Shown one piece after another: positions 9,411 through 49,704 of a stretch of 64,000 nucleotides of DNA. A program made the translations under genes and the position numbers. This DNA comes from Nitrospirota bacterium (GTDB lineage Bacteria > Nitrospirota > Thermodesulfovibrionia > Thermodesulfovibrionales > SM23-35). The DNA is taken from positions 17,312 through 81,311 of the forward strand of contig JBFMDQ010000003.1 in assembly GCA_040753955.1 (NCBI GenBank). Reading direction: 5' to 3'. The notes beneath the pieces are model-generated. The model searched no databases. It saw nothing but the letters and a program-made list of their open reading frames with translations, and was not told the DNA's origin. Numbering within the stretch: position 1 is the first letter of the stretch; every line of letters starts with the position of its first letter.

Positions 9411-10202
9411 GTGATCAATTATGAACCTAACAGACGAATCCAAGGCGATCCTGTGACTAAAATCTATGTCATAGGAATAGGCTACAAGCCCTTTGATAAA
9501 AGACAGAGGGAGATTATCTATAACTCCGAGTTCATCCTTTCCTCCAGCAGGCTTTTTGAGGTCTTTAAAGGATATGAAGAGTTTGAGAAGGTGAAGGAAA
9601 GGGTGCTCATAATTGATAATGTGGATGAGACCATCAACTTCATAAAATCCAAAATTCGTACACAAGGGGGACTGTGTCCCCCTTGTGAAATCCCCCTTGA
9701 AGAAAAGGGGCTCACGAGGGAAACTATGTTTCCCCCGTGTGGTATAACTGTCCTTGCCTCTGGAGACCCTTTGTTCTTTGGTATTGGTAGAAGGGTCATC
9801 AGTGAATTCAGGAAAGATATGATGGAGATAATCCCTGATCTTTCAAGCATTCAGGTGGCATTTTCGAGGATAAAGGAGCCCTGGGATGATGCCTTTCTCA
9901 TGAGTCTTCACAAAGGCCCGGACCCTAAAAAGAGAAGGAAGTTAAAGTATGAAATTAAGGATATCCCTGCTTTGCTTAAAAGGCACAAAAAAATTGCAAT
10001 CCTTACGGATAAAGAAAATAACCCTACAGGGATTGCAAAAATTCTTACCTCATCACCCATCACCCGTAATTTATCGCTCATAATGTTTGTCTGTGAAAGA
10101 CTTGGTTATCCTGATGAAAAAATCATTGAGGGGACACCTGAAGATATTGCAGGTAAATCCTTTTCAATCCCTAACGTAGTTATTGTTCTGATGAAAACGT
10201 AG
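9411..10202 (+). CDS. cbiE: Precorrin-6Y C5,15-methyltransferase subunit CbiE-like tetrapyrrole methylase carrying an internal ~29-codon insertion
   Basis: The ORF has IYVIGIG, VLASGDPLFFGIG and IPDLSSIQVAFSR blocks. An alternative GTG start lies at 9453. The insertion spans 9657-9743. Confidence 0.65.
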   Translation: MINYEPNRRIQGDPVTKIYVIGIGYKPFDKRQREIIYNSEFILSSSRLFEVFKGYEEFEKVKERVLIIDNVDETINFIKSKIRTQGGLCPPCEIPLEEKGLTRETMFPPCGITVLASGDPLFFGIGRRVISEFRKDMMEIIPDLSSIQVAFSRIKEPWDDAFLMSLHKGPDPKKRRKLKYEIKDIPALLKRHKKIAILTDKENNPTGIAKILTSSPITRNLSLIMFVCERLGYPDEKIIEGTPEDIAGKSFSIPNVVIVLMKT

Positions 10203-41279: not shown

Positions 41280-43778
41280 TCATCTTCCTGCCTTTATCCT
41301 TTCCCTGATTATATATGCCTGGCCGAGGGATATCCCGGCATCATTACATGCAACCTTTTCGTTGACATAGACTTCCATTCCTATGGATTTAAGCCTTGCG
41401 ATGGTCCTTTCGAGGAGATAAATGTTCTGAAATACCCCCCCGCTCAGAACAACTTCTTTTATCATATAAAGGGAAGAGAGCTTCTGCGCAATTCTAAAAA
41501 TAGCAGTGGCTACGGTGTTATGGAAAAGAGATGCAATAACACCTTCATCCTCTCCTTTTATTGAATCCTCTATAATCCTCAGAAAAGTCTGGGAGAAATC
41601 AATCTCTATGGCCTCTCTGAATTTTATATCTACAGGATAGTCATCAACTACATCAGGTCTCGTTATGGCTTCAAGTGCAATAGCTGCCTCTCCTTCAAAG
41701 GTATTTTTGTCACATATCCCGAGTATGGCTGAGACCACATCGAAGAGTCTCCCGGCTCCTGATGAAAGGGGCGAAAATTGTTTTTTATCGATAATCCTCG
41801 ATATGTTTTCCGTCGTCTCATGACCATACTTATCAAGAAAGCCTATGGACTCAAGATAATCCATCGCCTTATCTTGAGCCATGTTCCAAATATAGCTCAC
41901 AGCTGTCCTCCACGGTTCCTTAATTGCCACTTCACCCCCTGGAAGGGGAATATATCTGAAATGACCTACCCTTTCGAACCCCTCTATATTGGCAATTAAA
42001 ATTTCTCCACCCCAGAGATTTCCATCAGTGCCATAACCGGTTCCATCAAAGGAGAAACCTATAACCCTCCTCTTTATCCCCTTTTCAGCCATCACAGAAG
42101 CAATATGGGCATAGTGGTGCTGTATACCTATCTTTTCAATATCTTCCTGCCGCAATGCCCATTGTGTTGATAGATACCCGGGATGGAGGTCATAGGCAAG
42201 GGCCACAGGCTCTACCCTGTAAACATCTTTAAGGTTTTCTAAGCTCTCCTCAAAAAACCTCAATGTCTCGTAGTTTTCCATATCACCTATATGCTGACTC
42301 GGTATCGCAAAACCTCCCTTTGTGAGGGTGAAGGTGTTCTTAATATCAGCTCCACATCCGAGAACCTCAGGGCCCTCCTCGTGAAAGGGAATGGGGTCAG
42401 GGACATATCCGCGAGAACGTCTTATAAAAAAAGTCGGGAGTCGGGAGTCGGGAGTCAAGGATCCTAATTTTTGATTTTTAATTTTTAATTCTTGACTGAT
42501 GACTCTTACTACTGAATCATCAACCCGCATAAAAATATCTCTATTATGAATAAGAAAGGCATCAGCAATGTCTGAAAGCGTAGAGAAAGCCTCATTATTG
42601 TCTATGACGATAGGCTCTTCCGAGAGGTTGCCACTCGTCATGATAAGGGCATCGAAGTTAGTCGTTAGTCGATAGTCGATAGTCGATAGTCCTGAAGCTG
42701 TAGCCGCAGGCTTCAGCCTGCGAAATTTTTCATTTAAGGGATAAAAAAATAATAGATAATGCAACGGGGTATACGGAAGCATGAAGCCGAGGCAGGGGTT
42801 ATTCGGTGCAATTGCATCGGGAAGAGAGTTTTGCCTCTTTTTAAGTAGCACAATCGGTCTTTTGTTAGAAATTAAAAGCTCCTCCTCTTCTTTAGATACG
42901 TCGCAGAATTTTTTAATCGTTCCAACATCAGGCGCCATCAGGGCAAAGGGTTTGTTACTCTTTCTCTTCCTTAATCTCAACGTCTTTACTGCCTCATCGT
43001 TAGTTGCATCGCAGCCTAAATGAAACCCTCCAAGCCCCTTAATAGCAACAACTTTTCCTTCTTTCATGAGTTTTATTGTCGCCTCTATAGGATTTCCTTT
43101 TTCATAGACTTTTAGCTCTTCACCTAATAATCCCCTCATTCCCTCTTTATCCCTCTTAGTCCCCCCTTGGTAAGGGGGGAAATAGGGGGGTGAGGGGGGA
43201 TTACTTTCATTCTTTACTATTAATTCAACATGTGGACCGCATGCTGCACATGCATTCGGCTGGGCATGGAACCTCCTGTCTTCTGGATTATGGTATTCTT
43301 CCTCGCATTTAGGGCACATCTGAAAAACAGACATGGTAGTGCTCGGTCTATCATAAGGAACAGATTTTGTTATTGTATATCTTGGACCGCAGTTCGTGCA
43401 GTTTATGAATGGATAGAGGTAACGTCTGTCATTCTTATCCAGCAGCTCCCTCAAGCAGTCTTCGCATAACGAGACATCTGGAGAAATGAGGGTGAAACTC
43501 CCTTCGTCCTTACTCCTGACTATCTGAAAATCCTGATAACCATGATAGGGCATGGGAATTATATCAATTTCCATTATCTGTGAAAGAGGCGGGGCCTCTC
43601 TGGTAAGCCTCTCGATAAAGGTGGAGCTATTGTTACCTTCTATCTCGATAGTAACACCCCTGGATGAGTTCATCACGAGGCCCTTGAGATTCAAAGTTTT
43701 GGCAAGGCTATAAACAAAGGGCCTGAAGCCAACTCCCTGGACAATTCCCCTGACTAATATCTTCACCCTGGGTTTCAT
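41280..43778 (-). CDS. hypF: Carbamoyltransferase HypF carrying three in-frame repeat-derived insertions
   Basis: The 832-aa ORF has an acylphosphatase domain, two CxxC-x18-CxxC zinc fingers, a YrdC-like domain (AIKGLGGFHL) and a Kae1-like domain. Extra segments lie at 43116-43211, 42651-42743 and 42426-42500. Confidence 0.9.
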   Translation of the reverse strand: MKPRVKILVRGIVQGVGFRPFVYSLAKTLNLKGLVMNSSRGVTIEIEGNNSSTFIERLTREAPPLSQIMEIDIIPMPYHGYQDFQIVRSKDEGSFTLISPDVSLCEDCLRELLDKNDRRYLYPFINCTNCGPRYTITKSVPYDRPSTTMSVFQMCPKCEEEYHNPEDRRFHAQPNACAACGPHVELIVKNESNPPSPPYFPPYQGGTKRDKEGMRGLLGEELKVYEKGNPIEATIKLMKEGKVVAIKGLGGFHLGCDATNDEAVKTLRLRKRKSNKPFALMAPDVGTIKKFCDVSKEEEELLISNKRPIVLLKKRQNSLPDAIAPNNPCLGFMLPYTPLHYLLFFYPLNEKFRRLKPAATASGLSTIDYRLTTNFDALIMTSGNLSEEPIVIDNNEAFSTLSDIADAFLIHNRDIFMRVDDSVVRVISQELKIKNQKLGSLTPDSRLPTFFIRRSRGYVPDPIPFHEEGPEVLGCGADIKNTFTLTKGGFAIPSQHIGDMENYETLRFFEESLENLKDVYRVEPVALAYDLHPGYLSTQWALRQEDIEKIGIQHHYAHIASVMAEKGIKRRVIGFSFDGTGYGTDGNLWGGEILIANIEGFERVGHFRYIPLPGGEVAIKEPWRTAVSYIWNMAQDKAMDYLESIGFLDKYGHETTENISRIIDKKQFSPLSSGAGRLFDVVSAILGICDKNTFEGEAAIALEAITRPDVVDDYPVDIKFREAIEIDFSQTFLRIIEDSIKGEDEGVIASLFHNTVATAIFRIAQKLSSLYMIKEVVLSGGVFQNIYLLERTIARLKSIGMEVYVNEKVACNDAGISLGQAYIIRERIKAGR

Positions 43779-48889: not shown

Positions 48890-49059
48890 AAAAAATTATA
48901 AATCATCAGCTGCAAAATATCTTTCATTGATATTTCTGTTAAATAAGAGATGTCTTGATCTTTTACCCCGTTAGAAGGCCCCGTCCGTGAGGGCAGAGAT
49001 GATATAAATGAATTTTAAAATCCTCTTAGAAAAGGGGGGTGTTTAAAACTCCGTCCTTT

Positions 49060-49704
49060 CTAACGGGGTTTACTTTTACATGCCGGGCAGAATTCGTAGC
49101 CTTTTCTGTCTGTATCCGCTAAGGTGTTTGAAAAAAACATTACACATCGAGGGTTGTTGCAATGACCTAATCCATAGGTATGACCTAATTCATGAACAGC
49201 TTCAGTTAAGGCTCTCTTATTAAAAAGCTCTTTGTCTTCTGGTAAGCTATAAAATCCTTGCCTTAGACGGGTTAGGGAAATTACAGCCACTTTTTCGCTA
49301 GCCTCTCCAAAGACAAAATTTAACCGAGGCACATATAAATCGTGATCAACTACTCCCAAAACCTTTTCGTATGCGTTGTATCCTTTTTGCTTTATAAGGG
49401 TATTTAATATGGCCGTGGATAAATACTGATTTCTTTTCTTATCAAAGGCGTAATCAGGCTCCGGCATTGCTTTGCCAATAAATACCTTCTTGTTAAATAT
49501 CTTTCCTAAATGATTCTTAAGTCTCTCGATAGCCTCTTTGTTTACTTCTCCAACAGGCACCAAAACAATGCCTGCGCCCTGATTCCTTTCCTTTGCAAAT
49601 GAATCAACGTTTAAAAAGATTCTCGGTAAGTGGAATAAACCCGAGCAAGAAGCGATTATAAAGCCTAATTTCATTATATCAATCACGCGCACTGAGTTTA
49701 ACAA
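49060..49704 (-). CDS. amzA: Archaemetzincin-family zinc metalloprotease with an N-terminal hydrophobic extension
   Basis: It has the full signature HELGHTYGLGHC-x4-C.M...C..C (HExxHxxGx3Cx4CxMx17CxxC). Its stop codon lies inside a repeat arm. Confidence 0.85.
   Translation of the reverse strand: MLNSVRVIDIMKLGFIIASCSGLFHLPRIFLNVDSFAKERNQGAGIVLVPVGEVNKEAIERLKNHLGKIFNKKVFIGKAMPEPDYAFDKKRNQYLSTAILNTLIKQKGYNAYEKVLGVVDHDLYVPRLNFVFGEASEKVAVISLTRLRQGFYSLPEDKELFNKRALTEAVHELGHTYGLGHCNNPRCVMFFSNTLADTDRKGYEFCPACKSKPR

Follow-up and report, generated by a model that had tools for sequence, protein, structure and literature searches.

The hypF gene on a 64,000-nt stretch of contig JBFMDQ010000003.1 (assembly GCA_040753955.1, a Nitrospirota bacterium; we refer to this whole stretch as the window) contains an 87-nt in-frame segment, here called insertion A, which is absent from the gene of the closest relative and belongs to a dispersed family of 46-nt palindromic repeats. 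Insertion A likely represents one copy of a small palindromic repeat, dispersed and non-autonomous, that landed among the codons of the HypF linker and is now translated as a decaying loop. It is apparently one instance of a wider set of protein-coding palindromes in Thermodesulfovibrionales-like bacteria that has not been described, as our literature search returned no paper containing the peptide words or the hairpin strings, and nothing on such repeats in Nitrospirota.

An in-frame palindromic insert in the HypF linker

The 832-residue product of the host gene matches the structure PDB 3vth over residues 7-826 (E = 1e-208) in three blocks, and both its domain order and its full-length similarity to solved HypF structures identify it as the carbamoyltransferase HypF. 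A protein recorded as 'MAG Nitrospirota' (P0001; MAG, metagenome-assembled genome) is 100% identical to it, is annotated with the Pfam families PF00708, PF07503, PF01300, PF17788 and PF22521, and is the single member of its protein cluster. The alignment to 3vth is interrupted at three places, at the first of which residues 188-230 of the window protein stand opposite only eight residues (197-204) of 3vth, in what we take to be the segment joining zinc finger 2 to the first helix of the YrdC-like domain. Between the CGP of zinc finger 2 and the G-x-GG-x-H-L motif the window protein has 65 amino acids (aa), whereas almost every one of 80 HypF loci, drawn from metagenomes and spread over many phyla, has 33-37 aa; likewise, about half of 120 close orthologues (66-84% identity to the window HypF) have no insert at this linker. 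The hypF DNA of the closest relative, P0002 on contig L201, is 90% identical to that of the window, and in the pairwise alignment the linker contains a single clean gap of 87 nt, or 29 codons. The segment is a derived insert, although the TGAA found on either side of it leaves an ambiguity of 4 nt in where exactly it lies. An earlier note, made from the letters of the sequence, had proposed such an excess of linker length and is borne out by these figures; its placement of the insert at 43116-43211 was essentially right but about 10 nt too long on one side, and the 32-residue peptide that it gave is reduced to one of 29 residues, ESNPPSPPYFPPYQGGTKRDKEGMRGLLG.

The insert contains the sole C/G-rich perfect stem of at least 7 bp in the 64 kb. 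None of 100 dinucleotide-preserving shuffles produces the pattern CCCCCTT-N2-8-AAGGGGG, of which the window has one instance, so that the hairpin lies beyond chance. Runs of G6 or C6 are under-represented in the window, with 12 observed as against 31.6 expected from shuffles, and four of these 12 are inside the hypF insert. The stem is part of an imperfect palindrome of 76 nt, the long form of the element, which is bounded by the terminal inverted repeats TAATCCCC...GGGGATTA and is palindromic throughout, as in MITEs, the miniature transposable elements with inverted repeats; its fold energy is -22.3 kcal/mol as DNA (z -3.5) and -39.1 kcal/mol as RNA (z -2.1). Its extra length over the 46-nt form comes from a second, 'tagged' hairpin unit (43150-43179) that is nested in the outer loop. 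The C-runs and G-runs have decayed unequally on the two arms with no compensating changes, suggesting that the hairpin is not kept by selection at the hypF linker. We also considered and rejected the reading of this structure as a transcription terminator; no T-run follows the main stem, and the one terminator-like call made is no better than chance. The features of the insert and its host gene are collected in Table 1.

Table 1. Features of insertion A and its host gene, in window coordinates.
Feature	Position	Strand	Basis or comment
hypF, carbamoyltransferase HypF, host gene, intact	41280..43778	-	within hypA-hypB-hypF-hypD-hypE cluster
Insertion, 87 nt / 29 codons, encodes ESNPPSPPYFPPYQGGTKRDKEGMRGLLG	43123..43209	-	gap relative to L201; linker lengths in 80 loci and 120 orthologues
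TGAA direct repeat, upstream copy (coding strand)	43206..43209	-	possible target duplication or deletion microhomology
TGAA direct repeat, downstream copy	43119..43122	-	window versus L201 alignment
Imperfect palindrome, 76 nt, 'long form', ends TAATCCCC...GGGGATTA	43128..43203	.	folding; alignment to L002 4784-4864
Perfect stem, 9 bp, 3-nt loop, TCCCCCCTT-GGT-AAGGGGGGA	43160..43180	.	pattern count and stem scan
Outer element, decayed C-run arm, TAAT-CCCCTC-AT-TCCCTC-TTTA	43128..43149	+	coding strand: Gly-side ...KRDKEGMRGLL
Inner 'tagged hairpin' unit, TCCCTC-TTAGT-CCCCCCTT-GGT-AAGGGGGG, in loop of outer element	43150..43179	+	also in L002 4784-4862
Outer element, intact G-run arm, AAATA-GGGGGG-TGA-GGGGGG-ATTA	43180..43203	+	coding strand: NPPSPPY
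Best match to 46-nt two-tier model, overlapping inner unit and part of outer arm	43147..43193	+	cmsearch with R1, 33.5 bits

A dispersed family found in open frames

Orthologues with inserts at the hypF linker carry a compact two-tier palindrome, exemplified by that of contig L002, AAAT-CCCCCC-TCC-CCCCCCTTT-ACT-AAAGGGGGG-ATG-GGGGGG-ATTA. Seventeen non-identical canonical copies from different loci define a consensus of 46 nt, AAAT-C6-N2-3-C6TTT-N3-AAAG6-N2-3-G6ATTT (AAATCCCCCCTnACCCCCCTTTnnnAAAGGGGGGAnGGGGGGATTT), and from these we built a covariance model of 46 positions (R1), with an outer tier of AAT-C6 and G6-ATT and an inner tier of C6TTT and AAAG6. R1 finds a sole significant match in the window, within insertion A (E = 2.2e-7), and, over about 1 Mb of sequence surrounding the hypF genes of relatives, 28 distinct copies; insertion A is therefore a member of this dispersed family. 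The long form recurs as well, since positions 4784-4864 of L002, which lie inside a RibD gene, align to the window insert with 81.5% identity over 81 columns (E = 1e-13). A search of nine loci against Rfam gave nothing at the gathering threshold, and in the window it gave only sub-threshold generic hairpins such as miRNA precursors, at 28 bits against thresholds of 63-73. The termini of subfamilies differ by lineage, being AAC...GTT in L052, ACAAC...GTTGT in L123 and GATC in cyanobacteria, which is the pattern expected of amplification within genomes. Copies from the same genome have 30-175 nt in common together with these lineage-specific ends, and repeats of this length around the hairpin are not the ends of insertion sequences (ISs).

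Within HypF, the length differences among the 120 orthologues cluster at four places: after aa 190 (site A, in 46 sequences), after aa 313 (three sequences; L052 has a family copy there), after aa 355 (site B, 56 sequences) and after aa 428 (site C, 40 sequences). In one orthologue or another, each of sites A, B and C carries the word NPPxPPFxKGGxGGF, which is also found at a rare fourth site. Outside HypF, there are in-frame copies in nine proteins, namely a radical SAM protein, a CbiG/CbiH fusion, RecJ, a GH3 hydrolase, phosphoglucomutase, RibD, CysRS, YjeF/Nnr and HypD, located mostly between Pfam domains. Four of these hosts were found by a pattern scan that is blind to coding status, in which all four matches from low-GC Nitrospirota/Thermodesulfovibrionales genomes fall inside open reading frames (ORFs) of 506-837 aa. 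A single repeat family is thus present in frame in several unrelated genes, as is the case for the palindromic elements of Rickettsia discussed below.

Two of the host genes, that for the CbiG/CbiH fusion on L095 (1609-3525, minus strand) and that for the GH3 hydrolase on L171 (1934-3451, minus strand), each have two separate hairpin-derived peptides, examples being NPPFTKGGHGG and SPLLRGGLRGG. A peptide census with a 45-aa concatenate returned 16 candidates, all of them short hypothetical proteins, and was uninformative.

The element has two distinguishable orientations because its spacers, TCA...ATG, break the symmetry, and its six readings are not equally open. Among the 17 canonical copies, the AAT/CCC/CCC phase is free of stops in 17 and 16 copies in the two orientations respectively, the second phase in 17 and 7, and the third in 4 and 8. 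The coding copies that we observe use open phases only, mostly the one that reads N-P-P (NPPSPPFSKGGMGG, NPPIPPLLKGGEGGF, and once IPPHPPLLKGGGGD), which accounts for nine of the 12 two-tier coding copies checked. Long ORFs contain 12 of 15 two-tier copies. For the window insert itself just one of the six frames has no stop, and this is the frame used by hypF. The measured indels, of 87, 57, 171 and 72 nt, give the expected answer to the question of the earlier note whether coding copies are always multiples of three and free of stops, but this test is partly circular because coding status was assigned only in intact ORFs. Random insertions sifted by purifying selection would leave such a frame pattern, and no coding 'intent' is required. 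The absence of the insert from the closest orthologue, the family match, the long-form copy in a gene of another genome and the sole open frame together support the core of the earlier reading, in which a hairpin-type repeat, separate from the heptamer repeats, lies between the zinc fingers and the YrdC-like domain and is read through.

Two further links within the window have been dropped. The earlier note had connected insertion A with a 'related word' at 49019-49039 and with a hairpin in cbiE (9688-9726), but neither is significant against the family model (E values of 4.8 and 1.8, respectively), and blastn-short found no second copy within the window. The cbiE gene (ORF 9411-10202, plus strand) seemingly has about 29 extra residues at 9666-9740 relative to PDB 2bb3, and these are encoded by three small C/G hairpins, including AAATCCCCCTTGAAGAAAAGGGG, whose relation to the family is unproven at 9.9 bits. 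The intergenic sequence AATCCTCTTAGAAAAGGGGGG at 49017-49044, located 3′ of the ORF at 49060-49704 (minus strand), resembles a decayed single hairpin and scores 8.5 bits.

Turnover of the HypF sites and origin of the insert

The hypF genes of the window and L201 differ in content at all three hot spots while being 90% identical elsewhere, showing that the hot spots turn over much faster than their flanks. At site A the inserts of different orthologues range from +8 to +70 aa and derive from unrelated repeat families; in more distant lineages, that of L024 reads 'SRHSREGGNPE...MDSRLRTSGMT', and those of L027 and L030 read 'PHPxPLPxGE...PLPxGERIxVRG', indicating that site A tolerates unrelated inserts across lineages.

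The other two sites of the window gene have contents of their own. Site B (42650-42745) has an extra segment, 'RRLKPAATASGLSTIDY...', encoded by the hairpin GCAGGCTGAAGCCTGC together with, after it, 4.7 copies of the heptamer TAGTCGA, where L201 has a C-run/G-run hairpin instead of this heptamer-linked segment. Site C (42432-42490) consists of two adjoining translated heptamer arrays, AGTCGGG (3.6 copies) and TAATTTT (3.7 copies), and in L201 it is occupied by other heptamers, CATCAGT and CAACTTT. Tandem heptamers are frequent across the window, with many rows of period 7 in the table produced by Tandem Repeats Finder (TRF). In L052 (10500-10700) the hypF frame changes within a heptamer array at site A (FKIQDSRFKIQ...), which could reflect either a broken gene or a collapsed assembly repeat.

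A neighbour-joining tree with Fitch parsimony requires at least 23 state changes at site A. We rejected the reading of these as 23 independent insertions, since shared right boundaries and a recombination tract show that many of them reflect alleles exchanged or lost. The right boundary is TTA-TTA-GGT-GAA in the window, TTA-TTA-GAT-GAA in L324 and TTT-TTA-GGT-AAA in L001. The tract is seen on comparing L001 (8840-9100) with L326 (5570-5620), which are 98.9% identical and are distinguished by one 171-nt indel at site A, with nine differences in the 38 nt just downstream of it; this density of differences beside the indel points to allele exchange by recombination over a short tract. Independent events are still clear from copies at other linker codons (the P0029 type and L009), at other sites in HypF and in other genes. 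In addition, nested forms in which one element lies within another are found in the window, at L002 4784-4862 and in P0057/P0079, and suggest either that the loops of resident hairpins are favoured landing places or that composites propagate as units.

We infer that the family is or was mobile, and that it would have moved through a hairpin or single-strand intermediate of the type used by the IS200/IS605 elements or by the REP/RAYT system (repetitive extragenic palindromes and their associated tyrosine transposases), because the target is not cleanly duplicated, the repeats are too short to encode anything, no neighbouring gene family is enriched, Rfam gives no match and the structure is not a terminator. 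The copy in hypF is the 76-nt long form, with a second hairpin unit in the loop of the first, and the element would have landed in an ancestor of the clade, among codons for the flexible stretch that joins the zinc fingers to the YrdC-like domain. Its survival could be explained by a length that is a multiple of three and a Pro/Gly-rich, stop-free reading in the orientation and phase of hypF, as well as by the tolerance of the linker for extra length. The insert would now be translated as a 29-aa loop, a peptide that probably has no function of its own, and appears to be decaying, with one arm being without its G6 runs on the coding strand. Its presence and absence among relatives may then have arisen from further nested insertions, deletions, and allele exchange by recombination.

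Several observations weigh against this account. The right boundary at site A is shared at the protein level too (LLGE, LLDE, FLGK), so much of the patchy occurrence of inserts there may reflect loss or recombination of one old insertion instead of repeated insertion. There is no clean target-site duplication among four filled/empty pairs, with only the TGAA of the window (4 nt) being exact; the L001 pair has an imperfect flanking repeat, AAGTGAA/AGGTAAA, the L324 and L006 pairs are without a clear repeat, and in the pairs other than that of the window the flanks are replaced or recombined. No mobilising gene was found, as no Pfam family occurs in more than two of the 150 ORFs flanking genome copies and no transposase family is among the 25 Pfam families listed for flanking ORFs. 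With only one significant family copy in the 64-kb window, activity of the family in this particular genome is at most putative, and since coding copies were scored only in intact ORFs, any copies that disrupt genes are invisible to the analysis. Translation of the insert is deduced from conservation of the frame. An AlphaFold2 model of HypF built with 40 close homologues was too poor to show that the insert forms a surface loop; the mean predicted local distance difference test (pLDDT) score is 54, and residues 91-522 are almost entirely below 50.

An alternative to the decay of a passively tolerated repeat is that the insert is kept as something useful, either a flexible spacer that tunes the geometry of the zinc fingers and YrdC-like domain, or an mRNA hairpin that pauses ribosomes at a domain border and so assists co-translational folding. 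The RNA stem is strong (-39 kcal/mol), 46 of the 120 orthologues have something at site A, and copies in other proteins also tend to fall at Pfam domain borders, although placement of this kind would equally be left by purifying selection acting on random insertions. We nonetheless regard a retained function as unlikely, given that the closest relative is entirely without the insert, that what occupies the site varies so widely in length and in the repeat family from which it comes, and that the pairing of the outer arms has decayed without compensation.

A local origin is less probable still. Slippage or template switching within a Pro/Gly linker could make C-run/G-run palindromes without any mobile family, particularly as CCC (Pro) and GGG (Gly) codons are complementary and so ease the formation of palindromes; moreover, the insert has an internal repeat with a period of 10 and a short direct repeat, TGAA, at both flanks, and it occupies a hypervariable site where relatives have other slippage-prone repeats (heptamers). 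What strongly disfavours such a process is that the same 46-nt sequence, with its AAAT ends, TCA/ATG spacers and TTT-N3-AAA loop, recurs at further sites of HypF, in nine or more additional proteins and in intergenic DNA of other genomes, that the full 76-nt form appears again in ribD of another genome, and that G6/C6 runs are otherwise avoided by this genome. A sequencing or assembly artefact is scarcely credible. It is true that we are dealing with a MAG, that the protein stands alone in its cluster and that homopolymer runs invite sequencing errors such as poly-G noise, and a chimeric join could be imagined, but the insert is in frame and structured, homologous inserts occur in many independent assemblies from different projects, and the hairpin family is present in complete isolate genomes (Calothrix PCC 7716, Pseudanabaena minima).

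Relationship to known small repeats and wider distribution

In its behaviour the hypF repeat is closest to the Rickettsia palindromic elements (RPEs; Ogata et al. 2000, 2002), here with a new and much smaller element. As summarised by a review (PMC10969869), RPEs are palindromes of about 100-150 bp inserted in frame in many housekeeping genes of AT-rich, obligate intracellular Rickettsia, where they encode longer conserved peptides. The repeats described here resemble RPEs in being palindromic and non-autonomous, in occurring in frame in unrelated genes, in adding an extra peptide at positions where the fold tolerates it, and in having some intergenic copies. They are set apart by size, composition and host: the hypF element is 46 nt (76-79 nt when nested), is built of C6/G6 runs that give Pro/Gly words, and is found in free-living Nitrospirota/Thermodesulfovibrionales, with pattern-level relatives in many phyla and in viral contigs.

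REPs and their doublet forms, REPINs, are mobilised by RAYT transposases of the Y1/HUH class (PMC3116915, PMC3733652). Like these, our family consists of short G+C-rich hairpins with a conserved 5′ tag, many copies per genome and no clean target duplication; inverted doublets occur (for example in L090, L108 and L142), and across all bacteria the copies are mostly intergenic, with 31% of the matches listed lying in ORFs of at least 150 aa compared to 77% of random positions. Unlike REPs, the tag is AAAT-C6 (with an AAAT or AAT flank) rather than GTAG or CGTC (PMC3733652). Within this clade, moreover, the copies are largely inside genes rather than extragenic.

The small dispersed repeats (SDRs) of cyanobacteria are also similar in consisting of very small hairpins, in nested insertion and in co-occurring with heptamer arrays, as the hairpins do at hypF sites B and C. 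However, SDRs are 21-27 nt long and were reported by Elhai and colleagues in 2008 to be confined to one cyanobacterial subgroup (heterocystous cyanobacteria), whereas the elements considered here are 46-79 nt long. The bacterial MITEs such as Correia, ERIC and Nezha typically measure 100-400 bp and come with defined target duplications and an identifiable parent IS (PMC10969869, PMC3184786). Our family shares with them the non-autonomous character, the inverted-repeat termini and the occasional in-frame fusion to host ORFs, but differs in its small size (46-79 nt), in the lack of a clean duplication in the four filled/empty pairs and in that a parent element was not found beside the copies. 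Finally, the G+C clusters of yeast mitochondria are palindromic, mobile elements of an A+T-rich genome with polymorphic in-frame copies in VAR1; being organellar, eukaryotic and of unrelated sequence families, they offer an analogy only.

Colonisation of essential genes by in-frame palindromes has been treated as a peculiarity of Rickettsia (review PMC10969869). The same behaviour is now seen in a lineage that is free-living and uncultivated, where the element is about a third of the size and at least 10 protein families are affected. It explains why orthologues in these genomes differ in length by tens of residues, and do so at fixed hot spots, and it warns those who annotate genomes or predict structures that Pro/Gly-rich loops such as NPPSPPFSKGGMGGF are derived from repeats. 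The copies also provide a natural map of where HypF and other enzymes permit insertions.

We have also examined the distribution of looser matches by scanning species-representative genomes with the pattern C5-N2-3-C5TT-N3-5-AAG5, which matched at least 120 stretches, each match being viewed in the 8 kb around it. The matches listed come from Cyanobacteria, Nitrospirota, Nitrospinota, Desulfobacterota, Proteobacteria, Chloroflexota, Omnitrophota, Patescibacteria, Deinococcota and others, and include closed isolate genomes, for example the two cyanobacterial ones named above; viral contigs of IMG/VR are also among the matches listed for a stricter C6 pattern. The sequence directly 5′ of the first C-run is AT or ATC, usually AAAT, in 86-89% of the matches listed, which is not imposed by the pattern, and the outer right arm is present in 12-16% of them. 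In the viral contigs, 65% of the matches listed are in ORFs, compared to 80% of random positions.

These matches raise the possibility that the 46-nt AAAT-C6...G6-ATTT hairpin represents one homologous, ultra-small mobile family that is spread over many phyla and carried on phage or prophage DNA, and that in low-GC Thermodesulfovibrionales-like genomes it has become a second, independent system of protein-coding palindromes, inserting or being retained at domain borders, nesting in resident loops and providing a steady source of Pro/Gly linkers. We put this forward tentatively and consider it rather doubtful; should the looser relatives in other phyla and viral contigs prove to be homologous, the family would be unusual among mobile elements in being so small and so widespread.

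Among the viral matches, we note that a group of related IMG/VR contigs (L224, L225, L229, L232, L236, L237 and L259) have a C7-TAC-C7TTCGAGGAAG7 hairpin at the same intergenic position. It sits just upstream of a GGAGG...ATG start, and this conserved placement suggests a regulatory or terminator role.

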